Shown: positions 2,795 through 19,133 of the stretch, piece by piece | Numbering within the stretch: position 1 is the stretch's first letter | Layout: each line of letters opens with the position of its first letter | From: a virus | Lineage: Duplodnaviria; Heunggongvirae; Uroviricota; Caudoviricetes | Length of the DNA: 20,393 nucleotides | Virus record (IMG/VR): IMGVR_UViG_2609459790_000003 | Direction: 5' to 3' (one strand) | The notes under the pieces: generated by a model | Databases searched by the model: none | Seen by the model: the letters and a program-made list of their open reading frames with translations, nothing else | What the model was told of the DNA's origin: nothing | Program-made: the position numbers and the translations under genes

Positions 2795-3383
2795 TTAGCT
2801 TTAATATCGAGTGGTGGATAGTCCATGGACAAGCTGATGGGCGCACTCGACGAAAACGATGCGCCAGGCGGACTGTGTCGCTCATAAACCGGGAGTTGGC
2901 CAGAGGACTTAGTTGTCCTTTGCAATTCTGCAGGTTCGCACGTGAAAGTAGCCAAAACCCTGCGAACCTGAGTGCAAACCTGCAACTGCGAACCACTGAG
3001 GTGGCCTCTCATAGCTGGTGGTCATACTGGATATTAATCAGGCCTGCCACAGGCATAACAATCCATAACAGACGCATCGCACTAACAATTACTAATAGGT
3101 CCGCTCGCAACACTAATTTTGACTAAGCCTGAACGCAATGCTCAGAAAGAACGAAGAATGGAATGAATCGTACCAGCATGTTGCTCCATGATTTTTACGT
3201 TCAAGACAGTTGCTTAATCTCGCCTCGCAATTCAGCCCCCTTGCCGCGATCTTGCCGTTATCGAGAAGTCTTTCTCCTTTCGGTTAATGCTATCGGTCTT
3301 CATATTACCAGCAGCATACGCCATCCGATTATTTCGATGCTACGCGCGCGTACTTGTCGCAAAATACCAGGCAAAGGCCAGAT

Positions 3384-4713: not shown

Positions 4714-7440
4714 CTATTCCCATTCGCTAACATCTTTCATGCCACTGAGGGTAGCTACAATCCCGGCCCTTGTCAGTTTCACGAATTCTTCAGCCCCAAC
4801 GGCATCACGAATTGCTTTCATGGCAATTTTATTGGCCGAAAATCGTTTCTCTGCTGCGGCGATCGCTGCTGGTGATGCCCCTGCGCGCACTGCTTTTGTA
4901 GCTTCCTGAACGGCTTTCTCTATCGCATATCGACCACTTCTTGTCGCCCCAATCTTAGCCACAGTATTTCTCAGTGCGCCACCAGCAACCAAACCACTAA
5001 TCGAACCAATTACACCACCGCCAAAGCCTCCAGCGATCGCACCTGACTGTTGAACTCCGTTCATAATCACACCGACGATCTTTGGAAGGCCTGAATCGAG
5101 CGTTTTGAGAGCCTCAGTTGTTCTTCCCGTGCGCTCTACGTATCGCTGCGGTCTGGTGCTGGCTTTAGCGAGTACACCGAACTCTTTCATCATTCTACCG
5201 AGATCTGGCGCATGACGACTGATGGCGTTTACATTCTGCTGGGTCATGAGCTTGGCAAAATACTGGATACCAGACTCTTCACCGATTCCTCCCTTCTCTC
5301 CCTGCGCCACAGCATGCTGAAGAATAGATGCTATTGCTGGTTGGCGTTCTGCTTCCGGCAGCGCGGAGATAAGGCGGTGAAAAGCTCCCGTTCCAGTATT
5401 TGCGGATGCCTTAAGCGTATCGGCACCTTTTCTTACCATAGCGTCTGATGCGAGATCTCGACCAAAAACAGATTCGGCATTTTGTTTGGCGATAATGTAA
5501 CTTTTAGAGAGATCGTTAGCTTTCTGCCATTCTGTGAGGAAGTTTCCTTTTTCAGCCATGATGCGCATGTCATCAGTGATAGCTCTGCGCATTTCTCCGG
5601 CAATCCGGGCGGCATTGGCCTTACCTGCCCGGGTGTTTGCTTGTTCAGCATCAGCAAACTTAGCACGCCATGCCTTCATCCCGTCGAAGGTTATGCCGCC
5701 ACCTTGGTTGTTGGCAGCCTGAAACTGTTTCATCTCCGGGCTGAGTGGAACATTGGCTGCTTTTTCTGCTTGGACGACAGCCATCCCATTACTCATTTTC
5801 ATCCTTTCGCGTGGCATCGTGCTTCGCAGTTCTGCCCATGCCATATTCTCTGCTGTTTTCATATCACTGAGGCTCGCGATGATGCGCTCTTTAATTGCTG
5901 CGCTTTTTTCTGATGCGCTTCCAGACTCAGCACCGAAATCAGACAACTGCTTATTCAACTTTGAGGATATTTCATTGAAGGCCGTAAGGTGAGCATCCTG
6001 AACATTCCCAGGAGTTGATGCCAGAACACCTTCTGCTTGGGCAATTCCACGACTACCTGAGCGCATTCCAGGCGTCAGGGTGTTGATATTAATACCAGTG
6101 ATTTTCGCCGCCTTAGCGACATCATCTCTGACGTTTGATGCCTGCGATGCGATATGCTCTCGGCCTACGGCAGAACGCGCTGCTTTCGATACATCATTGG
6201 CGGTTTCCAGAGTATTTGCTGCCCCTAACACATGGCCTGATTGATTTGTATTACTCCGCAATACATCTCGCATTACGTCACTGGCTGTCTGTCCGCTCTT
6301 TATTAAAGCGCGTGCTCCTAGCGATCCTGCTAGGCCAATACCTGTCTCTTTTGCTAGGTCTTCTGGGCTGATCTGCCCGTTCTTTTGGGCGTTCACCAAT
6401 GTACCTGGCAGGTTTTCTGCCAACATACTAGCCACCTTTGTGGCCGCACGTTCAGCACGTGGAGCGTTGGCAACTGAAGAAGCTGCGGTAGCTGCCTTTC
6501 CTGCACCTAATCCTGTAATAAGGTAAGGTGCTAGCTGCTCACCAGCCTGCGCGTATGGATCTGTAGGTTGGTCTACTGGGCGAAAGACAGGTGATATGGG
6601 CGTGTATGTGCCATCACCCACACCAAGCTTCTGAGCTGCCCATGCTCCGGCTGATTGCGCCGCATTGACTACCCCCACGCCTGCGTCCATTACATCAAAC
6701 GGTATATTAGCAATCCCTCTGGCCATCTGCTCTGGCGCAGCTTTCAGTCCTGGCGAAAGATATTCCATCTCAGGATTAAGGTTAGACTTGGCTACTTGCT
6801 GCTGCGGTTCCCCGGCATTTTCATCGGCGAGAAACTGAGCTCTTTTCTGCTCCCATGAACTGGCTGTTGGTAGTCCTGCTTCTATGTTCTTAAATTGCTG
6901 ACGTTTTGCTTCCCATGCAGAAATATCTCCCACCTGAGAGATTTCTTTATCAAGCTCTGAGTAGTCAGGCTGCTGAAGATTGCGATGTTGACTGGTTTGT
7001 GCAAACTGCAAGATTTCACTGTCATCAGGGATTATTCCGGCATCTGCAAATTTACTTACGTAATTAGCCGTTTCATCTGGCAGTGTAGATTTACCGTTTC
7101 TGACGGCATTAATACGAGCATAGCCAGAATTATACCCAGCCAATGCCATACCTATATCACCAAATCGCTTCATTCCTTTATTGAGATGGTTTGCTGCGAT
7201 ATCCATTTGCTTTTCAAATGGCAGTGAGCGCGGATCAGTTCCACGATAACCAGCATCACTCATTACTGAGGGCATCAGTTGAGCAAATCCTCTAGCTCCT
7301 TTCGGTGACTCGGCACTTCCGTTACCACTAGATTCATTGCCAACTAATGTTTCCATCGTCCCTGATGGGAAACCATATTTTTCATCGAGATGACGGGAAT
7401 AGGCTTTCTGTTTTTCTGTCAGTTGTGCCATCATTGCCAT
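4714..7440 (-). CDS. 908-aa protein with N-terminal lytic transglycosylase (SLT) domain and long Ala/Gly/Gln-rich body
   Basis: N-terminus carries SLT motifs (ESSGN catalytic Glu-Ser, GFAQLMP, AGYNSGYARI). The remainder is helical and low-complexity with a Gly/Ala-rich C-terminus. Its start is adjacent to the stop of the upstream gene. Confidence 0.9.
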   Translation of the reverse strand: MAMMAQLTEKQKAYSRHLDEKYGFPSGTMETLVGNESSGNGSAESPKGARGFAQLMPSVMSDAGYRGTDPRSLPFEKQMDIAANHLNKGMKRFGDIGMALAGYNSGYARINAVRNGKSTLPDETANYVSKFADAGIIPDDSEILQFAQTSQHRNLQQPDYSELDKEISQVGDISAWEAKRQQFKNIEAGLPTASSWEQKRAQFLADENAGEPQQQVAKSNLNPEMEYLSPGLKAAPEQMARGIANIPFDVMDAGVGVVNAAQSAGAWAAQKLGVGDGTYTPISPVFRPVDQPTDPYAQAGEQLAPYLITGLGAGKAATAASSVANAPRAERAATKVASMLAENLPGTLVNAQKNGQISPEDLAKETGIGLAGSLGARALIKSGQTASDVMRDVLRSNTNQSGHVLGAANTLETANDVSKAARSAVGREHIASQASNVRDDVAKAAKITGININTLTPGMRSGSRGIAQAEGVLASTPGNVQDAHLTAFNEISSKLNKQLSDFGAESGSASEKSAAIKERIIASLSDMKTAENMAWAELRSTMPRERMKMSNGMAVVQAEKAANVPLSPEMKQFQAANNQGGGITFDGMKAWRAKFADAEQANTRAGKANAARIAGEMRRAITDDMRIMAEKGNFLTEWQKANDLSKSYIIAKQNAESVFGRDLASDAMVRKGADTLKASANTGTGAFHRLISALPEAERQPAIASILQHAVAQGEKGGIGEESGIQYFAKLMTQQNVNAISRHAPDLGRMMKEFGVLAKASTRPQRYVERTGRTTEALKTLDSGLPKIVGVIMNGVQQSGAIAGGFGGGVIGSISGLVAGGALRNTVAKIGATRSGRYAIEKAVQEATKAVRAGASPAAIAAAEKRFSANKIAMKAIRDAVGAEEFVKLTRAGIVATLSGMKDVSEWE

Positions 7441-8750
7441 CCCTTAAGTTTTGCCTGATAGTAACTTTCCGGCAGATAGCCATGTGCGGTCACATAATCC
7501 TTAACCAGTGAAGGATCCTGCAACAGCATTTTGGTATCAGTTTCTTCGTCCTTTGATTTGGTTACAGGAATACCGAGCCCGGCAATCTGTCGTTTCTGCA
7601 TTCGAATAATTACGTCCTGCGCTTTATTCAACTCTCGCAAAAATGCCTCATTGCTGGTTGCTGACTTAATGCCATTTTGAGATTGCATAAGGGCAGCCCT
7701 TTCCCCTTCGGTTGGGTTAGAGCCAAAAGTCCCTTTGAGGCTAGGCAGAATAACCTTTAGGTTGTATTCATCAGCTTTGGCGCGTAGGCTTCGTGTGTCT
7801 TCTGCTACATCAGGAAGGAATCCAAACCCCAGCGTCAGGGGGTTATAGTTCTGCGAGCGGGTAACGGCCGAAGGATGTTTCCCTACAATTCCCGCCAGTT
7901 CATGACCCACTTCAAGCGCAGAGTTCAAGGAGTCGATGTTACCTGTAACAGTATTAATTTTATCGTTCATCTTCTCCACTTTCGCCTGCTGTACCTTGCT
8001 CAGTTCAGCATTGAGCTTGTCTCTCTCGATGTCATTTTGAGCACGTCCAAGTCGTGCTTTCAGAACCATTTCTCTCGTGCGTAGTTGGTTATCGGATAGG
8101 ACTTTGAACTGCTCCATATCGAGACGCCGATTACCCTGTTCCGCATTAACCTGAGCATTATATGCAGATGTATCTGCGTTCTGCTGTGCAATGCTCTGCC
8201 CTTGCTGCTTCTCTTGAACACTAAAGTAACTATTTGGATCAGCATGGAGGTGGATGAGGTCAGTGATTCTGTTGAATTCCTGTGGGTCATTCTGCCAAGA
8301 CTGATAAACCTCTTCAGCAGGAAGACCAAATCGCTGTAATACTGGATTTGCCTGCTGAATGGCCTTCTGCATGGTCAGTGGATCTCCAGTTTGTGACGCA
8401 AGACGCAGATTCATGGCAGCGTCAGCGGTCTGTCGATTTTGCTCAGCATCAATGAATCCCATCTGTTTTTGAGAATCAGCCATAAACTGGGGATACTGGG
8501 CCATTAACTTCTGCACGCCAACACGATCATTATTAGCTACCGCACTACCCAACCGTGCCTGATATTCTTTTAGCTGCTGGGAAATTTGCGCCTGCTGATT
8601 AATCTCAGCAACGCCTCTTAGCCCCTGTAGCGCCATTAAACCTACGTTTGGCTGCTGCTGATACTGCACAGGCTGAGGAACGGAAGAACGAGGAGCATTA
8701 TCATTTTGCGGTGCCATGCTAGGCAGCCCGCCAAGTTGCCATGTCGTCAT
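7431..8750 (-). CDS. 439-aa Gln-rich coiled-coil protein
   Basis: ATG at 8748-8750 overlaps the upstream stop (TAATG); Q-rich helical composition; no catalytic motif seen. Confidence 0.85.
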   Translation of the reverse strand: MTTWQLGGLPSMAPQNDNAPRSSVPQPVQYQQQPNVGLMALQGLRGVAEINQQAQISQQLKEYQARLGSAVANNDRVGVQKLMAQYPQFMADSQKQMGFIDAEQNRQTADAAMNLRLASQTGDPLTMQKAIQQANPVLQRFGLPAEEVYQSWQNDPQEFNRITDLIHLHADPNSYFSVQEKQQGQSIAQQNADTSAYNAQVNAEQGNRRLDMEQFKVLSDNQLRTREMVLKARLGRAQNDIERDKLNAELSKVQQAKVEKMNDKINTVTGNIDSLNSALEVGHELAGIVGKHPSAVTRSQNYNPLTLGFGFLPDVAEDTRSLRAKADEYNLKVILPSLKGTFGSNPTEGERAALMQSQNGIKSATSNEAFLRELNKAQDVIIRMQKRQIAGLGIPVTKSKDEETDTKMLLQDPSLVKDYVTAHGYLPESYYQAKLKGWQ

Positions 8751-9427
8751 TAGAATCCAAGCCCCCCAACAAGACCAATAAGCCCACCACCAATAGCCCC
8801 GGCGACATTACCTATACCCGGAACAACGGAACCAAGTTGCGCACCCGCTAAAGCGCCTGATGCCGCCCCACCAATACCACGCGCAAGACTGGATGGCTGC
8901 TGCGCCTGACCTGCACGAATAGCGCCAAGCCCCTGCAAGAGTTGTCCGGTATTATTGGCGTAGTTTTGCCCTGCTGTTGCCTGCCCTGATGCCGCATTCA
9001 TCCCGACATTTAGCAGGTTTCCATAATTTTGCATTTGCCCACTAAGCCAATTGTTATAAAGCATGGGCGCAATGGAAGATAACTGGTTACTGGTAGCTGT
9101 TGAGCCAAGCCCCCCGGTAGCTTCTGCTGAGACAAGGTTCTGATAACGGGCCTGATCTGCCTGTGTTTTATATAAACCAGAACCAAAGAAATCATTCGCG
9201 GCTTTATTCTGCCCTTCCAGAGTCATCAGTCCTTGCAGTTGTTGTAAAGCAGGCAATCCGACTTCTGCATACGGCTTGAGATTATTCATCACCGTATTCC
9301 ACTGCTCGCGCTGCAAATCAATTGCCTGCTGCTGGGCCTTCGCCTGGGCTTTAGAGGCACCACCATCACCGCCTTTTTCGTATACGGCACGATTGAGATG
9401 TTTATGAGCTATATGGGTAATTAACAT
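8750..9427 (-). CDS. 225-aa protein with C-terminal glycine-zipper hydrophobic segment
   Basis: C-terminus GIGGAASGALAGAQLGSVVPGIGNVAGAIGGGLIGLVGGLGF; ATG overlaps the stop of the 153-aa gene. Confidence 0.85.
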   Translation of the reverse strand: MLITHIAHKHLNRAVYEKGGDGGASKAQAKAQQQAIDLQREQWNTVMNNLKPYAEVGLPALQQLQGLMTLEGQNKAANDFFGSGLYKTQADQARYQNLVSAEATGGLGSTATSNQLSSIAPMLYNNWLSGQMQNYGNLLNVGMNAASGQATAGQNYANNTGQLLQGLGAIRAGQAQQPSSLARGIGGAASGALAGAQLGSVVPGIGNVAGAIGGGLIGLVGGLGF

Positions 9428-9882
9428 TCGCTGAGTTCCTTATATTGTTGCCGTGTTAACTGATAAAGCGTTACGCCGACGGGTTTACCACATCTGATAT
9501 ATGCATCGGCCAGGTGACCAACACGGGTAGCGCCAAGCAAACGGATAATTGCCCGTCCGTATTTCGTGGTGTCAGGAACCATGGTGATGCTGTTAAGGAA
9601 TGGTGAGTTTTCGAGAAGCCATTTGCAGAACAATCGATGCCCTTGCAGTGCATATTCACCACGGAATCCGGGGTCGTACACCGCATGGCATTCAACAATG
9701 CTATGCCAGAAGTTACGCACTTCATGAACGCCTGTCAGCACTAATCCTTCGTAGATGCCGAGATATACCGCATCAGGCTTGATGTAGTACGTGTGCCCCG
9801 GCTCAACAATATTTTCGGTATTGCCAGGCTCGTTAAGAAAGGCCTGTAATCGCACCGGGTTATCAATAAATTTTAGTTCCAT
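9421..9882 (-). CDS. 153-aa protein, first large gene of the module
   Basis: ATG at 9880-9882, 16 nt after the stop of the small upstream ORF; compact globular composition; no motif recognised. Confidence 0.8.
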   Translation of the reverse strand: MELKFIDNPVRLQAFLNEPGNTENIVEPGHTYYIKPDAVYLGIYEGLVLTGVHEVRNFWHSIVECHAVYDPGFRGEYALQGHRLFCKWLLENSPFLNSITMVPDTTKYGRAIIRLLGATRVGHLADAYIRCGKPVGVTLYQLTRQQYKELSEC

Positions 9883-10644: not shown

Positions 10645-13404
10645 TCATTCTTCAGATGAGTTATAATCTCCTGGCTGGTAATTGAGTACATAAACGTTTA
10701 TTTGTCGTCCCTGAATACGTGGTGATTTTCTTTGGTATCCACGACCGCTGTTTGGTGGGGTTAGCATCCCGGCTTTTTTCAACACTTCAGCAAACTGTTT
10801 TGCGTTGAAACCACATGCGATCTCCTTTTCAAATGTGGCCGGGAATGTGTAGAAAATCATTGGGCTTTCGTCATGTTCTCCACGCTGACGGTATCCGGCT
10901 AAATCTTTGATGGGCAAATCTGCCGGGCTGTATGGAAATGGTGCAAAACGGCTAAGCCCATAGGCATTAAGAAATGCCTCCGTTTGTTCAATAATCTGCT
11001 GATGTTCTTTGTTACCTGTGCCGAACTCGCGCAACCATGCGTTATAGCTGTGCTGTATCGCATCACGGCATGTCTGAGCATCCCAGCCTGTTACAACCTC
11101 GCCTAACAGCAATGCGGCCTCCAGAATGGCAAATCGCGCGGCTACACGGTGAACCTGCTCACCATAATCGGATGGGATCAGACTTCTCCATCTGCTTTCG
11201 CAGTCACGAACAGTTTTAATTGCCTGTTGCTGGTGGTCTGCCAGCCATTTAATCCACTCACGCCCGGCTGCGCCGTGGTGATGCTGGTAAGCGTCTTTCA
11301 GTGCGTCTGCGTGCTGTTTTCCGTTCTGGTAATCGTGAAAGCGTACTGCTTTACTCAACGGAATATTCAGCAGTCGCACCAGTTGCCCGGCTTTGGTTTT
11401 TCGCCCGGAAGTAGCGATAAATGTTTCTAAATCCATTTCTCCGGTGCTGATTGCCACTGTACGCCAGCGTTTTAGATCCCGGTTTCCACCATCTTTAGCG
11501 CCTTGCAGTTTCCCTACACCGTTAAATAACGCATAGGCAGACTGTGAAACGCTGACAGGATCTGCGCCCTGACCAACTTCATCAAGCGGCATTAGTCCGT
11601 CATTGTGGGCGGCAGCTTCATTTGCCAGCCCCAGCGCGGTTCCGTACCACGTCAGCCGCAGTAAATCAGGGTTGCCGTATAAGCTGCTCGCCACGTTTGC
11701 CGTGGTGGTCTTACCTGCGCTCGACTGCTCATAGAAATGAATGCCGAACCCGTCAGCGCCCACCAGCCCAATCAATGGCGCTGCCAGTGCTGCGCCGATC
11801 CCGGTCATCATTGAATAGTTACCAAAGGCCAGACGCGCCACGCTATCACGCCAGCTTTTCGCGCTCCCTGAGATAGTATATCCGGCTGCGGCTGAGCTTC
11901 TCCCGCTGAACAGCACAGGATTTTCAGGTGTTCCGATGATTTCCCCATCAGGCATGATGTACGCTCCGCATTGCCAGCCAGTGGCATGAGCAACACGCCA
12001 CAATTCACGAGAGCCACTGCGTTGTAGCCAGTCTGCCAGTATTGCTCTGAGGCTGCTTTTGGTCGTGACATTTACCCCACCAGCTTTAAGTGTGCGCCAT
12101 CCTTCACGTTCACCAATATCAGCCAGTGGAATGGCAGCGGTTGTCGGCGTTTCAGAACCAAACGACAGCCAGCGAAGAATGAGATACTGGTCTTTATCGT
12201 CTCTGCCAGTACCGATAACGCTTAACGGAGAACATAACCAGCTTTCGTTATTGATGATTTCTCCACTCTGGCTGTCAGCTCTCGGAGATACCCAATAAAT
12301 ACCATCCTCGCGGCTTTCTATTCTTGGTTTCAGTGGGTCGGTATCCATAACCTTAAAATCGCTTCCTTCAATGGTCTGTGGCTCCTGTTTCACGCCATTA
12401 CCCTGTGGTTGGTACATTGATTTATTGAACGCTTCTGTAGCGCATTTAATGCCGTGTTTTTGGTGGTAATCATTCCAGTCGGCTTTGTGATCTGTCGGGG
12501 GTAATGCCACCCATCCAGAAACAGATAAAGCTGCTTTTTCTGCTGCTATTCTCCCCGTGTTTTGTCTTCCTTCGCTGTGGTCGTTATCCGCAGCAATGAT
12601 GATTTGTGCTGAAGGAAATTTATCCCGCAGTACCTGGGCGACATATAACAGGTTCCCGGCATCAATCGCCGCCACTGTCAGCGCCTCTGGACGAATTAAA
12701 TGGGCAGATAATGCCGTTGCCAGCCCTTCTGCGATTAAGATGCTCTGTGTTGTTTCTGGTGCGTTTATGGCGTGATATGCCCCTCGCTTTGCTGAACCTG
12801 TCAGGAGTCTTTTTTCACCATGTGAGGTAATAGTCTGTGCTGCTGTTACTGCGCCGGATTTATCCACCAGCGCCAGCAACAGAGATCCATCGGGCAACAC
12901 GGGGAATGTAAAATCACCTACCCCTTTCGCAACCAGATAATCAGATTTGCCGTTTACAGCCTTTCTGCGCATGTCATCAAACTGACGGGAAAACGTATCC
13001 CGTCTTTGTTGTTCGTCCTTCTCTGCCCTTTTCAGGCGCTCCTGTTCGCGTCGCTGGCGCTCGGTTTCCAGTTGTTCCCGTTTCTGGCTGGTGGCTTCTG
13101 GTGTTTCCGTTGTCCGGTAATCAATACCCAGAACATCAGCGGCAAGAAGCGCCGCCTCTGTTGTGTCGCAGTTATTTACGCGTTTAATTAAATCCAGCCC
13201 ATCACCAGCGCCGCACTGATTACAGATGAAGCTACCGCGCCCGTTGTCATCGAACCGGAATCGATCTTTACCCCCACATGCAGGGCAGGGAGCATGACGG
13301 CGTGGAGAGTCAGGGACATTTATGTTCAGGCAGCCCAGCACATGAGGCCAGTTGTTTTCAGACGCACTGATAACCTGACGGATAAGATCAATGTTTCGCA
13401 TCAC
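10645..13404 (-). CDS. bifunctional DNA primase / SF3-type helicase (P4 alpha-like)
   Basis: N-terminal zinc ribbon CPACGGKDRF...CNQCG, central primase region, C-terminal P-loop (SSAGKTT). The track start at 13404 is GTG; the ATG is the next codon (13399-13401). Confidence 0.9.
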   Translation of the reverse strand: MMRNIDLIRQVISASENNWPHVLGCLNINVPDSPRRHAPCPACGGKDRFRFDDNGRGSFICNQCGAGDGLDLIKRVNNCDTTEAALLAADVLGIDYRTTETPEATSQKREQLETERQRREQERLKRAEKDEQQRRDTFSRQFDDMRRKAVNGKSDYLVAKGVGDFTFPVLPDGSLLLALVDKSGAVTAAQTITSHGEKRLLTGSAKRGAYHAINAPETTQSILIAEGLATALSAHLIRPEALTVAAIDAGNLLYVAQVLRDKFPSAQIIIAADNDHSEGRQNTGRIAAEKAALSVSGWVALPPTDHKADWNDYHQKHGIKCATEAFNKSMYQPQGNGVKQEPQTIEGSDFKVMDTDPLKPRIESREDGIYWVSPRADSQSGEIINNESWLCSPLSVIGTGRDDKDQYLILRWLSFGSETPTTAAIPLADIGEREGWRTLKAGGVNVTTKSSLRAILADWLQRSGSRELWRVAHATGWQCGAYIMPDGEIIGTPENPVLFSGRSSAAAGYTISGSAKSWRDSVARLAFGNYSMMTGIGAALAAPLIGLVGADGFGIHFYEQSSAGKTTTANVASSLYGNPDLLRLTWYGTALGLANEAAAHNDGLMPLDEVGQGADPVSVSQSAYALFNGVGKLQGAKDGGNRDLKRWRTVAISTGEMDLETFIATSGRKTKAGQLVRLLNIPLSKAVRFHDYQNGKQHADALKDAYQHHHGAAGREWIKWLADHQQQAIKTVRDCESRWRSLIPSDYGEQVHRVAARFAILEAALLLGEVVTGWDAQTCRDAIQHSYNAWLREFGTGNKEHQQIIEQTEAFLNAYGLSRFAPFPYSPADLPIKDLAGYRQRGEHDESPMIFYTFPATFEKEIACGFNAKQFAEVLKKAGMLTPPNSGRGYQRKSPRIQGRQINVYVLNYQPGDYNSSEE

Positions 13405-14920: not shown

Positions 14921-15180
14921 TTCGCACTCTCCGCATCGATTAAACTGATATCTATCAGAGAGGTAACTTTTTGTAGCCAGCTAGTGATTACTGTCGCCTG
15001 TTCCCCTCCCACCGATGGAAGAATCTCATTCATCACATGAACCAGACCTGTGCGCGCTCTGGTAAGCCGTTCAGTCGTGCGATCTGCAAGAGTGAATGTG
15101 TCTGGATATGGCTCTTCACGCCCCAGCAATGATTCAATTTCCAGCTCACACGGATGACGATAAATTAAGTTGATATTCAT
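14917..15180 (-). CDS. hypothetical small protein (87 aa)
   Basis: ATGA start/stop overlap with the upstream gene. Confidence 0.65.
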   Translation of the reverse strand: MNINLIYRHPCELEIESLLGREEPYPDTFTLADRTTERLTRARTGLVHVMNEILPSVGGEQATVITSWLQKVTSLIDISLIDAESAK

Positions 15181-15371
15181 TTTTCACCCCCAAGAATTAC
15201 CAGCTCGGCACGGGCATCGTTAACCAAAGATGAGCACGCTTTAATCGCATCCACGACATCAGCAGCGTCCATTTCTTCAGCCGAAAGACTGACAGCAACC
15301 AGGACAGCCGCTGCTTGCTCGATTAATTGAAGTGCGGACGTAAGTCGAGGGGCATTAATTGAGTTATTCAT
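15177..15371 (-). CDS. hypothetical small protein (64 aa)
   Basis: Track ORF starts at 15428; the ATG at 15369-15371 ([10 protein letters not shown]...) overlaps the upstream TAA in an ATGAATAA junction. Confidence 0.6.
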   Translation of the reverse strand: MNNSINAPRLTSALQLIEQAAAVLVAVSLSAEEMDAADVVDAIKACSSLVNDARAELVILGGEK

Positions 15372-15582
15372 TGGTTGCCCCCGTTTTTCCTGGCATTTCG
15401 CCACCTTCCAGCAGGAAATGAACGTCACGAACGGCGAGATCCAATATCGCGAGTAACGCCTTCAGTTTTTCGTCTCGTGAGGGAGAGTTGCTCACCAGAA
15501 TGTCATTAATCACTTCTGTCAGTGTGATGATCTGGCTTGTACGTTCGAGGGGATCCATATGCACATCGTAGGTTTTAATCAT
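15364..15582 (-). CDS. hypothetical small protein (72 aa), alternative reading of the 3' end of the long ORF
   Basis: ATG at 15580-15582 with GGAGG 7 nt upstream, overlapping the TAA of the alternate-frame 64-aa ORF (ATGATTAA). It is in frame with the 355-codon ORF, so it may instead be that ORF's C-terminus. Confidence 0.45.
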   Translation of the reverse strand: MIKTYDVHMDPLERTSQIITLTEVINDILVSNSPSRDEKLKALLAILDLAVRDVHFLLEGGEMPGKTGATNE

Positions 15583-16431
15583 GTGCCACCTCCATGCGGA
15601 TACGACCAGCAAAAAAGCAGACGTGATCGCGCACCAGAGAACGGCGAGCATCGCGTTCAGACTCGGCAGCAATATGATGAATTTTGGCGGTAATTGTCGG
15701 GCAATCGCGGCGAACTGCGGCGATAATCCAGATAAATTGCGGTTTTTGGGTAGGGGTAGTAGCCAGCATGTGGCAGCCTCCTTGTACTGGGAATTCTTCC
15801 CACCACCGGAGCTGCGAAACTCGCTGGTGGTGGACTGAACAGAGTTCGCAGTACCGGCGTACAAGGAAACCGGCCAGCCTTTCGGCTGCCCTGTCCAGCC
15901 CACCATAATTTTGCAAGCGACGCGGATTATAACCACATCACTGAAAAAAGTGTGAGTCTGGCTAACGGCACAAAAAAAGACGCTCGGCGCGTCATGTGTC
16001 GCCTCGTACATTTCCGGGCTGCGAAACCCGGCACCCGTTTTATGAGGTGCCTTATAACCATAAACCGTGTTGCCGCATAACGACAAGCTCTTTTTTATGG
16101 ACTCCGAAAACTCACTATTGGAAGCACCAGATGCACAATACATCGCGCTCATTTCGTTAACGTCGCGCGTGTGGACGAAGGTTTTTGTGGAGCCACTACG
16201 CGAGCAGAGAAAGCCATCTACGACCAGAAATTCTCTGGCGCAGCCGCTGACCCTCTCAACGCTAACACCATCGACCGTAATTTCTGACATAGTTAAGGCA
16301 TCCGCTCCTACCACCAGCAAATGATAAACTTTGCTTGCATCTGCTGTATTAATGCCTGATTTTGCTGTCATATTGCTGGATTTTGGCGACATACCAGTCA
16401 GTGAAAATATCTTCTTCTGGGCGGTTAGCAT
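15364..16431 (-). CDS. hypothetical protein; 355-codon open frame, true 3' end uncertain
   Basis: ATG at 16429-16431 with GGAGG 7 nt upstream. Both other minus-strand frames are closed by stops between 16431 and about 15940, so this frame is coding there. It stays open to 15364, but beyond about 15770 the composition suggests nested small genes or a frameshift. Confidence 0.35.
15575..15769 (-). CDS. hypothetical small protein (64 aa) in alternate frame
   Basis: ATG at 15767-15769 with AAGGAGG 7 nt upstream; protein-like composition ([22 protein letters not shown]...), whereas the long ORF's frame over the same bases is L/S/P/W-rich. Confidence 0.4.
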   Translation of the reverse strand: MLATTPTQKPQFIWIIAAVRRDCPTITAKIHHIAAESERDARRSLVRDHVCFFAGRIRMEVAHD

Positions 16432-19038: not shown

Positions 19039-19133
19039 TGCGTCACCTTTTACGCTGCGCCTTATTTTGTGATTGAGCCAGGCGGTAAGGCTTCCCGCTT
19101 TTCGCCCCGTCGAGCTAGGCTCAATCTATTCAG

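Follow-up and report, generated by a model that had tools for sequence, protein, structure and literature searches.

A P4 eta-like long reading frame overlying C4 and isrK RNA genes in a probable satellite-prophage immunity module of E. coli

Results

Genes, RNAs and signals at the locus

The window (the whole stretch of DNA that was analysed, 20,393 nucleotides of the Caudoviricetes record IMGVR_UViG_2609459790_000003) carries on its minus strand a 355-codon frame that runs from 16431 to 15364 without a stop, as an earlier note on this DNA had read it. Over the first ~160 codons no other ORF of at least 50 aa lies on the minus strand, in agreement with that note and with the ORF list. The features found within and around this frame, which we call ORF355, are as follows.

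16425-16431, minus strand: start/stop overlap ATGCTAA shared with the DUF4222 gene upstream, behind a GGAGGT Shine-Dalgarno (SD) sequence; translational coupling
15364-16431, minus strand: ORF355, eta-like (RefSeq 'ash family protein'), overlying the promoter candidate, isrK, C4, the icd leader, icd (+1) and orf72 (in frame)
16063-16431, minus strand: variable N-terminal part of ORF355, 123 codons, with homologues in E. coli and Salmonella only
16057-16086, minus strand: candidate internal promoter (equivalent of P4 PLE and Gifsy-1 PisrK), read by eye
15973-16050, minus strand: isrK / P4 seqA-like leader RNA (Rfam RF01394, 69 bits against a gathering threshold of 50)
16019-16025, minus strand: C4 target a1, in the loop of isrK hairpin 2
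16002-16009, minus strand: C4 target b1, within isrK
15979-15993 (stem) and 15972-15978 (T7 run), minus strand: isrK intrinsic terminator, from a terminator scan
15922-15936, minus strand: small conserved hairpin GTGG-TTATAAT-CCGC between isrK and C4, with stem changes that are compensatory among loci (by eye)
15823-15910, minus strand: C4 antisense RNA / P4 CI RNA gene (Rfam RF01695, 81.1 bits against a gathering threshold of 45, full length 1-87)
15859-15867, 15845-15851 and 15825-15827, minus strand: b' loop, a' strand and 3' CCA tail of C4
15812-15818, minus strand: target a2, TTCGCAG, complementary to C4 a' (covariation)
15800-15807, minus strand: GGTGGTGG, forming an alternative helix with the C4 3' arm and tail (15826-15833) whose loop holds a2 (covariation)
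15777-15787, minus strand: target b2, GTACAAGGA (15779-15787), overlapping the icd SD GGAGG (15777-15781) (covariation with b')
15575-15769, minus strand: Icd-like / P4 Kil-like gene, 64 aa, +1 out of frame in the long ORF (NCBIfam NF033153)
15364-15582, minus strand: orf72, 72 aa, in frame with the long ORF and forming its C-terminus; its start overlaps the icd stop
15364-15371, minus strand: overlap ATGAATAA of the long-ORF stop with the start of the next 64-aa gene (15177-15371), from sequence and annotation

The strong internal starts and embedded genes that the earlier note had suspected are both present. The ATG at 15769 follows AAGGAGG and opens a 64-codon frame that ends at the TAA at 15575-15577; its product is a predicted member of the host cell division inhibitor family (71.7 bits to NF033153 against a cut-off of 25), with 43% identity to P4 Kil and 140 homologues, mostly of 63-65 aa. 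The ATG at 15582 follows GGAGGTG, overlaps the icd stop as ATGATTAA and opens orf72, which is 39-50% identical at the amino-acid level to its counterparts in four relatives (L015, L016, L022 and L030), has a dN/dS of 0.06 against locus L003, and in L036-L038 is annotated in its own right as a gene of 72 aa. Stop-start overlaps of similar form do recur in this operon, at 15582, 16425-16431 and 15364-15371. Searches of Pfam, NCBIfam and PHROGs gave no match for the N-terminal 123 aa, orf72 or the next 64-aa ORF. RefSeq annotates this ORF as 'ash family protein' (WP_032191285.1) in an E. coli locus of 99.8% identity.

Two RNA genes lie beneath the long frame

The inverted repeats had been taken for one ~120-nt nested structure acting in cis; they belong instead to a discrete and known antisense RNA gene, C4/CI. 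Its fold comprises 27 pairs, in which a long closing stem surrounds two hairpins, and 97-99% of cells are paired across the covariation set of 22 distinct homologous loci. Changes on both sides occur at 10 of the 17 pairs of the closing stem, at all five pairs of hairpin 1 and at one of the five of hairpin 2. The closing stem is followed by a CCA, the 166-nt stretch folds at z = -6.0 relative to shuffles, and in the minimum-energy fold C4 closes on itself with its loops free.

Rfam matches to both C4 and isrK reach the gathering threshold in the window, in P4 (where they fall at cI and seqA) and in 26 of the 32 species-level relatives; for L028, isrK matches only below that threshold. A permissive Rfam search found neither RNA in six Icd-like loci (L024-L027, L032 and L034). 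Where C4 is present, a long ORF crosses the promoter/seqA/cI/seqC region without exception (28/28 loci).

The candidate promoter upstream of isrK consists of a -35 hexamer, TTGTCG (16081-16086), an 18-nt spacer and a -10 hexamer, TATGGT (16057-16062), with a predicted start near 16050. It agrees with consensus at 8 of 12 positions, which is under the promoter-scan threshold, and the scan hence left it uncalled. Across 28 loci the hexamers TTGCC and TAnnnT are conserved and the spacer between them varies; at the -35 position the window has TTGTCG and close relatives have TTGCCG. A second promoter considered at TATAAT (15926-15931), upstream of C4, was rejected, the hexamer being the unconserved loop of a covarying hairpin.

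The a2 and b2 targets covary with C4

All three inverted repeats described in the earlier note are present and perfect: 15779-15787/15859-15867 (I7, 9 nt), 15800-15807/15826-15833 (I9, 8 nt) and GGCAGCC/GGCTGCC at 15772-15778/15884-15890 (I14, 7 nt). When the proposed covariation was examined across the 22 loci, two of the three pairings held and one did not. CCTTGTAC/GTACAAGG is predicted to be the C4 b' loop paired with the icd ribosome-binding site: 7 of 9 pairs are changed on both sides, 92% are paired, and b2 and the C4 loop are predicted to form an 11-bp duplex of -14.9 kcal/mol. The earlier proposal that RNA pairing covers the 15769 ribosome-binding site is thereby supported, with C4 b' and b2 as the partners. 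The CCACCACC/GGTGGTGG helix likewise covaries (8 pairs, 100% paired, 4 changed on both sides), as does a'/a2, with 6 of 7 pairs changed on both sides and 97% of cells paired. GGCAGCC/GGCTGCC, on the other hand, is paired in 64% of cells and shows zero compensatory change, GGCTGCC being near-invariant while the hairpin-1 arm varies, and this repeat is probably best treated as coincidental.

Predicted pairings of a1 and b1 to C4 are supported by the sequences and by the comparison of own with cross duplex energies. For isrK and the icd leader alike, the targets of a locus pair with its own C4 ~10 kcal/mol better than do those of other loci, and the own target is best or tied best for C4 in 18 of the 22 loci. 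A leader-only cis hairpin between the a2 flank and the SD (-25.6 kcal/mol) was also considered and is not general, because it relies on the variable a2 sequence.

Maintenance of an open, in-phase long frame

Homologous loci share a long open frame that varies in length and N-terminus, in which the RNA genes always lie in phase and nested small genes are present; in each of the 34 loci compared, such a frame passes through C4. They thus show neither a single conserved 355-aa protein without covariation, given that length and N-terminus vary and two repeats covary, nor clean separate genes divided by an in-frame stop that is mutated here. The distance from isrK to C4 takes seven values (98, 101, 110, 125, 128, 140 and 185), every one of which is 2 mod 3. 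The start/stop overlap between the long ORF and its upstream gene is found in 26 of 28 loci. Among 34 loci compared, icd is in frame with the long ORF in 24 and +1 out of frame in 10, the window included; the +1 frame over icd is stop-free in 10/10 loci that use it and contains at least one stop in 20/24 loci that do not (hypergeometric p ~8e-6, by hand arithmetic from locus counts and without phylogenetic correction). Synonymous-codon resampling gives a joint probability of 1.4e-5. With spacings that keep phase, coupling at its start and openness across icd, the long frame is not accidental, and it looks translated.

Across the RNA region, variability at the three codon positions shows no third-position excess (isrK 0.15/0.14/0.15; spacer 0.30/0.39/0.26; C4 0.26/0.21/0.25), so that openness, and not protein sequence, seems to be selected. 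Selection maintains both the openness and the phase of the long frame; the amino-acid sequence over the RNA region is without coding-type constraint. Compared with L003, the N-terminal 123 codons carry 36 differences at a dN/dS of ~0.56, and the RNA part carries zero.

A run of seven T residues lies in frame at the isrK terminator. Of 130 complete E. coli genomes of the same immunity type, 121 carry the T7 version at ≥99% identity and none carries T6; metagenome matches have T7 in 4/4. A T6 run that breaks the long ORF occurs in three Logan (short-read) assemblies, so openness is not absolute. Programmed frameshifting or phase variation at this run was rejected, T6 occurring in no complete E. 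coli genome of the same immunity type. A close relative (H5) annotated with an ash pseudogene and an Icd-like gene was considered as a case of a broken ORF; its ORF is intact (13 substitutions, 0 nonsense), and the difference is therefore one of annotation only.

Comparison with P4, P1/P7 and Gifsy-1

The 355-codon frame is the E. coli satellite-prophage counterpart of the phage P4 eta gene. The immunity region of P4 comprises PLE, seqA, cI (the CI RNA), seqC and the nested kil and eta genes (Forti et al. 1999, summarised in PMC10111431). Window and P4 have the same order of parts: a coupled upstream gene, a long ORF, an internal promoter (a candidate one in the window), isrK/seqA with its terminator, C4/CI, a second target on the ribosome-binding site of a ~65-aa gene, toxic in P4 and putatively so in the window, and then replication genes. 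The distance from C4 to the ATG is 141 nt in the window and 142 in P4, and Phage_ASH falls on the same segment of eta as of ORF355. P4 eta is a 214-codon ORF that ends with Kil, which is homologous to the Icd-like protein of the window. The geometry differs, however: P4 kil is the in-frame C-terminus of eta, whereas in the window icd is +1 and the long ORF runs on into the 72-aa gene. The N-terminal extension, 123 codons in the window as against ~25-40 in P4, is unrelated.

In P1 and P7 the same C4 fold with a' and b' is found (Rfam RF01695 and RF03163), and an Icd-family gene lies directly downstream of the targets; a1/b1 are upstream and a2/b2 downstream, with b2 on the icd ribosome-binding site, as in the window. 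The P1/P7 immI operon, attributed to Citron and Schuster 1990, reportedly consists of the c4 antisense RNA, icd and ant1/ant2. P1 icd is coupled to the antirepressor gene ant, whereas the window has an AntA/B-like gene upstream and a primase operon downstream.

The isrK-orf45-anrP region of Salmonella Gifsy-1 (PMC4825925) has an isrK with its own promoter and leaky intrinsic terminator, a stable processed RNA downstream (STnc1160) and alternative pairings that govern a downstream ribosome-binding site, features that are likewise predicted for the window. It differs in that short IsrK is a trans activator of orf45-anrP translation, and in that neither an Icd gene nor a long overlying ORF is described. 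Two studies treat isrK as the equivalent of seqA and C4 as that of CI, and report a functional isrK promoter and a terminator leaky enough to permit read-through (PMC3632133; PMC4825925). C4/CI is described as a processed RNA that acts in trans (PMC10111431, PMC3632133, PMC4825925).

Discussion

A probable immunity module with the logic of P4

In our view this locus quite probably serves a P4-like satellite prophage as its immunity (lysogeny-control) module, with the construction of the PLE-seqA-cI-seqC-kil/eta region of P4. The P4 precedent already explains the layout of RNA genes and nested genes under a long ORF, and the finding, though real, is largely ordinary; for P4 eta, kil, CI and seqA, the literature gives the same logic as that proposed here (PMC10111431), in which RNA-mediated termination is overridden by translation of transcripts from an upstream promoter. 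In what follows, how promoters are used, how the RNA is processed, whether Rho is required and whether ribosomes translate the long ORF are inferred from homology with P4, P1 and Gifsy-1. In the quiescent state, a weak constitutive promoter within the ORF (~16057-16086) would produce an untranslated transcript from near 16050, most copies of which would stop at the isrK terminator. C4 would mature from read-through RNA, with RNase P forming its 5' end and trimming setting its 3' end at the CCA. C4 would then bind a1/b1 and a2/b2, icd translation would be blocked, and the naked RNA would be terminated (by Rho in P4), keeping downstream genes including primase (10645-13404) off.

When the upstream operon promoter, on the alpA side, is active, ribosomes would enter the long ORF through coupling from the DUF4222 gene, cross isrK, C4 and its targets, then icd in the +1 frame, to reach 15364, and pass to the next gene. 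Their passage would melt the terminator and target structures and deny Rho a loading site, so that the transcript from the upstream promoter would be insensitive to immunity. On this view ORF355 would matter mainly as a ribosome track. Selection for openness without protein-type constraint indirectly supports a role for long-ORF translation in suppressing immunity-specific termination. Since icd is out of frame with the long ORF, unlike in P4, the P4 model is here carried over to a different geometry. At the 10 of 34 loci where a 1-nt difference before the icd start places the long ORF in the +1 frame, the window included, selection may keep that frame stop-free over the 64 icd codons and fuse it to the next gene, with the long ORF as a pure ribosome track and not a protein, a reading to which we give slightly less than an even chance. 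If it is right, the same 192 nt are read in two frames depending on the promoter of the transcript, and the locus offers a clear natural example in which translatability is selected and the product is not, in an out-of-frame variant of the P4 eta/kil nesting of which we found no description.

Alternative explanations

ORF355 might instead encode a true regulator, a transcription factor of the 'Ash' or Bro-network kind that is selected for its amino-acid sequence, with the RNA genes merely overlapping it. The Pfam Phage_ASH match (PF10554, 99.8 bits against a gathering threshold of 26, aa 124-232), PHROG matches to 'transcriptional repressor/regulator' families, the listing of Phage_ASH among Bro-network domains (PMC10111431), the maintenance of the frame and an N-terminal dN/dS of 0.56, which is below 1, all fit such a protein. 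However, the Pfam and PHROG matches are confined to the isrK/C4/leader stretch (aa 106-233; P4 eta aa 37-161), which has strong RNA covariation and lacks a third-position excess, and the 'repressor' label goes back to an obsolete protein reading of P4 cI. Moreover, N-termini are unrelated between loci, and the C-terminal half depends on the frame class, being the Icd sequence in class I and an alternate-frame read plus orf72 in class II. We regard a regulatory protein as quite unlikely. That the long ORF is never translated, and is open by chance in conserved G+C-rich RNA sequence with the RNAs and small ORFs as the real genes, appears very improbable. The high conservation of the RNA segments without a coding signature, the occasional PGAP annotation of small genes in place of the long ORF and the T6 variants with a broken ORF would agree with it, but phase is preserved at seven independent spacer lengths, every locus that uses the +1 frame over icd has it open as against 4 of 24 that do not, and both the codon resampling and the start/stop coupling speak for translation. 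In addition, the fast-evolving N-terminal 123 codons are still open after 36 substitutions, and T7 is essentially fixed in complete genomes.

A remaining reading, which we judge unlikely, holds that the repeats form a single large cis mRNA structure hiding the 15769 ribosome-binding site, or that a programmed frameshift joins the frames. C4 and its target share a read-through transcript, and cis b'-b2 pairing is therefore physically possible; a cis conformer with isrK silences the downstream ORF in Gifsy-1, and the alternative helix 15826-15833/15800-15807 covaries. Against a cis structure stand the self-closed minimum-energy fold of C4, its documented trans action as a processed RNA and the failure of the outermost pair, GGCAGCC/GGCTGCC, to covary. 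The T7 and T6 runs within the ORF might suggest a frameshift, but the run is fixed at T7 in complete genomes; the frameshift entertained in the earlier note is not needed, since the 355-codon frame is continuous.

Annotation and immunity specificity

Returning to the reading as a P4-type module kept open for ribosomes, the 'ash family protein' name, Phage_ASH and several PHROG 'transcriptional repressor' families would track two RNA genes and not a protein domain: the PF10554 'domain' coincides with the isrK-C4-leader DNA, whose conservation is of the RNA type and not of the protein type. The features to annotate at such loci are the RNAs, the Icd-like gene and the 72-aa gene; at present, PGAP annotation of identical architectures is inconsistent. 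With this locus the P4-type RNA immunity systems gain a further E. coli island, which does not overturn current understanding of them. The comparative data lend independent sequence-level support to the view that the overlying ORF is retained so that ribosomes can pass. In the window, the P4 genes sid, psu and delta are missing and P22-like ejection genes are present instead. The a/b specificity sequences of the window differ from those of P4, which implies a different immunity type. The comparative data also point to many immunity specificities exchanged as a cassette; in L036, all three site sets are exchanged together between near-identical flanks.

The 355-codon frame overlies two RNA genes and two small genes

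The minus-strand frame that opens at ATG 16431 runs stop-free for 355 codons to the TAA at 15364, as the earlier note had proposed, and over its first ~160 codons it is the sole minus-strand ORF of at least 50 aa. Both internal starts that had been singled out are present as well: ATG 15769 lies downstream of AAGGAGG, its 64-codon frame closing at 15575, and ATG 15582 lies downstream of GGAGGTG and overlaps the stop of the 15769 frame as ATGATTAA. Comparable overlaps mark both ends of the long frame (ATGCTAA at 16425-16431 and ATGAATAA at 15364-15371). The original observation is real and was correctly spotted. Within this frame, hereafter ORF355, two Rfam families were matched at the gathering threshold:

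15973-16050, minus strand: isrK (RF01394, 69 bits)
15823-15910, minus strand: C4 antisense RNA (RF01695, 81 bits)

The single Pfam match of ORF355, Phage_ASH (aa 124-232), corresponds exactly to isrK, C4 and the leader of icd, the gene starting at ATG 15769. The icd product falls among the Icd-like proteins (NCBIfam NF033153, 71.7 bits) and has 140 homologues across Enterobacterales, mostly of 63-65 aa. The 72-aa gene from ATG 15582, orf72, is conserved in four further species (39-50% aa identity) and shows a dN/dS of 0.06 against the closest relative; other assemblies carry it as an independent gene call.

The matches of Phage_ASH, and those of PHROGs 6928, 995 and 3960 (labelled "transcriptional repressor/regulator"), are restricted to translated isrK-C4-leader DNA, at 15736-16062 (minus strand) in the window and 8330-8704 (minus strand) in P4, and the conservation of this DNA is of RNA type rather than protein type. 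The interval between isrK and C4 also holds a small hairpin, GTGG-TTATAAT-CCGC (15922-15936, minus strand), whose stem apparently covaries from locus to locus, together with another T6 run (15944-15949, minus strand); neither is part of the Rfam models.

Comparison with P4

P4 (NC_001609) carries the same two Rfam families at its cI RNA gene (8420-8507) and seqA region (8615-8692), both covered by a 214-codon ORF (8168-8812). The C-terminus of this ORF is a 65-aa sequence (MATTLTPSHPEF...) homologous to the Icd-like protein of the window; in P4 the 65-aa sequence is Kil and the ORF is eta. Phage_ASH matches aa 37-161 of the P4 ORF, which are likewise seqA-cI-seqC DNA. The P4 record still retains an obsolete CDS, "cI gene product (AA 1-137)".

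P4 seqA and CI RNA are structural homologues of isrK and C4 (PMC3632133; PMC4825925), and the CI RNA is encoded inside eta (PMC10111431, citing Forti et al. 1999). A constitutive promoter within eta yields a transcript that is terminated quickly and from which CI is processed, and Kil is a truncated form of Eta (PMC10111431); termination is prevented when Eta is translated from the upstream late promoter (PMC10111431, citing Forti et al. 1999). The window module belongs to the P4-type (C4/CI) RNA immunity systems. Its RNAs, Icd-like gene and "ash" ORF are already present in public databases, and the locus is largely explained by existing knowledge. The only defining P4 feature that it lacks is the in-frame nesting of kil within eta: in the window icd sits inside the long ORF in a different frame, and the long ORF runs on into orf72. 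We regard this out-of-frame nesting, of which we found no description, as a modest variant.

Covariation supports antisense pairing and two of the three inverted repeats

We compared 32 loci from different species, retrieved through the Icd-like protein, together with P4. C4 was found in 26 of the 32, each of which also has an isrK match (in L028 under the gathering score). In the other six (L024-L027, L032 and L034, from Rosenbergiella, Tatumella, Erwinia and one MAG; positions ~1400-2700), neither C4 nor isrK was detected even at permissive thresholds, and the Icd-like sequence forms the C-terminus of an open frame of 290-430 codons.

Pairing was evaluated on 22 distinct C4-to-ATG sequences, and the helices of C4 show covariation in this set. 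Between the b' loop of C4 and its target b2, over the icd Shine-Dalgarno sequence, there are 9 pairs, with double changes in 7, and the a' strand forms 7 pairs with a2, with double changes in 6. The a' and b' elements have further matches in a1, which sits in the hairpin 2 loop of isrK, and in b1. Pairing with a locus's own targets is ~10 kcal/mol better than with those of other loci, and the loci display a dozen or more specificities. In L036 (~2880-3160, aligned to ~15780-16030 of the window), a1/b1, C4 a'/b' and a2/b2 have been swapped jointly for another specificity, between an N-terminal segment and an icd nearly identical to those of the window.

The three inverted repeats lie exactly where the earlier note had placed them (I7, I9 and I14), and the 166-nt stretch folds far more stably than its shuffles (z = -6.0). 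Covariation was found for two repeats and left GGCAGCC/GGCTGCC unsupported. The b'/b2 antisense pairing corresponds to the repeat CCTTGTAC/GTACAAGG. The repeat CCACCACC/GGTGGTGG forms a helix of its own (15800-15807 with 15826-15833, minus strand), which is fully conserved and covaries; in it the 3' arm of C4, with the CCA tail, pairs with a downstream segment and a2 is held in a 22-nt loop. Where the C4 3' arm changes, the downstream partner of this alternative helix shows a Watson-Crick change, and the C4 5' arm merely wobbles.

Evidence that the open frame is under selection

A long stop-free frame passes through C4 in all 34 loci. Seven distances between isrK and C4 occur (98, 101, 110, 125, 128, 140 and 185 nt), each 2 mod 3. 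In 24 loci, including P4, the long frame coincides with that of icd and terminates at the same stop; in the remaining 10, including the window, it is +1 to icd because the C4-to-ATG distance is 1 nt shorter or otherwise shifted. The +1 frame over icd is stop-free in 10/10 loci of this second class and contains at least one stop in 20/24 of the first (hypergeometric p ~8e-6, by hand arithmetic from the counts and uncorrected for phylogeny). Under synonymous-codon resampling, the per-locus probability of an open +1 frame was 0.03-0.67, with a product of 1.4e-5. In 26/28 loci there is an overlap between the start of the long ORF and the stop of a preceding ORF of ≥45 codons.

In the isrK terminator, a T7 run (15972-15978, minus strand) sets the frame; among 130 complete E. 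coli genomes of this immunity type, 121 carry it at ≥99% identity and none has a T6 version. T6 is confined to three short-read assemblies (L036-L038), where it breaks the long ORF into products of 155 or 167 aa and could reflect real variation, decay or assembly error.

Protein-type constraint is not evident. Variability is flat across codon positions in isrK (0.15/0.14/0.15), the spacer (0.30/0.39/0.26) and C4 (0.26/0.21/0.25). The N-terminal 123 codons (16063-16431, minus strand) occur in E. coli and Salmonella only, other loci having unrelated sequence; they have a dN/dS of 0.56 (36 differences) against a relative with an identical RNA segment, and no other part of the locus differs as much from its closest relative (85-89% nt identity, with flanks at ~99-100%). 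Together, the conserved phase, the two frame classes, the coupling to the upstream ORF, the T7 run and the lack of protein-type constraint indicate that the long frame is selected. On these five lines of sequence evidence the frame appears to be translated, while its product does not look like the object of selection.

Proposed mechanism

Homology with P4, P1 and Gifsy-1, from which we infer the regulatory steps, suggests how the anatomy, pairings and maintained frame observed here may work together. The hexamers of a candidate internal promoter (TTGTCG-18-TATGGT, 16057-16086) recur in the other loci, and the promoter scan did not call this candidate. This weak promoter would produce an untranslated RNA from ~16050, most transcripts would end at the isrK terminator, and C4 would be processed out of read-through RNA. 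Pairing of C4 with a1/b1 and a2/b2 would then block icd translation and cause premature termination, keeping the primase operon silent. Transcripts from the upstream operon promoter would instead be translated continuously, gene to gene, through ORF355, which would remove the terminator and target structures and leave Rho no loading site.

Genomic setting and annotation

E. coli chromosomes match the region at 99.8% identity, and ~480 complete genomes contain most of it. The integrated element adjoins yicC and encodes, in order, an integrase, an alpA-type regulator, an AntA/B-like protein, DUF4222, the 355-codon ORF (annotated "ash family protein"), several small ORFs, a TOPRIM/DUF927 primase and P22-like ejection genes. 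PGAP annotates one homologous locus (L001, 9270-10337) as a single 355-aa "ash family protein" and another (L002, 3690-4126; 98.8% identity) as a partial "ash" pseudogene plus a "host cell division inhibitor Icd-like protein", with orf72 unannotated. Despite the pseudogene annotation, the long ORF of L002 is intact and its architecture is that of L001.

An int-alpA RNA (Rfam RF02996, 60.6 bits) lies at 19059-19125 (minus strand), between the integrase and the next island gene. Downstream of the primase, 7431-9882 (minus strand) holds genes for P22-like head-morphogenesis (DUF2824) and DNA-ejection proteins; after them comes a gene that the near-identical RefSeq locus labels a lytic transglycosylase. 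This stretch is a "late zone" like that of PICI-type satellites (PMC10111431), unlike the sid/psu/delta genes of P4.
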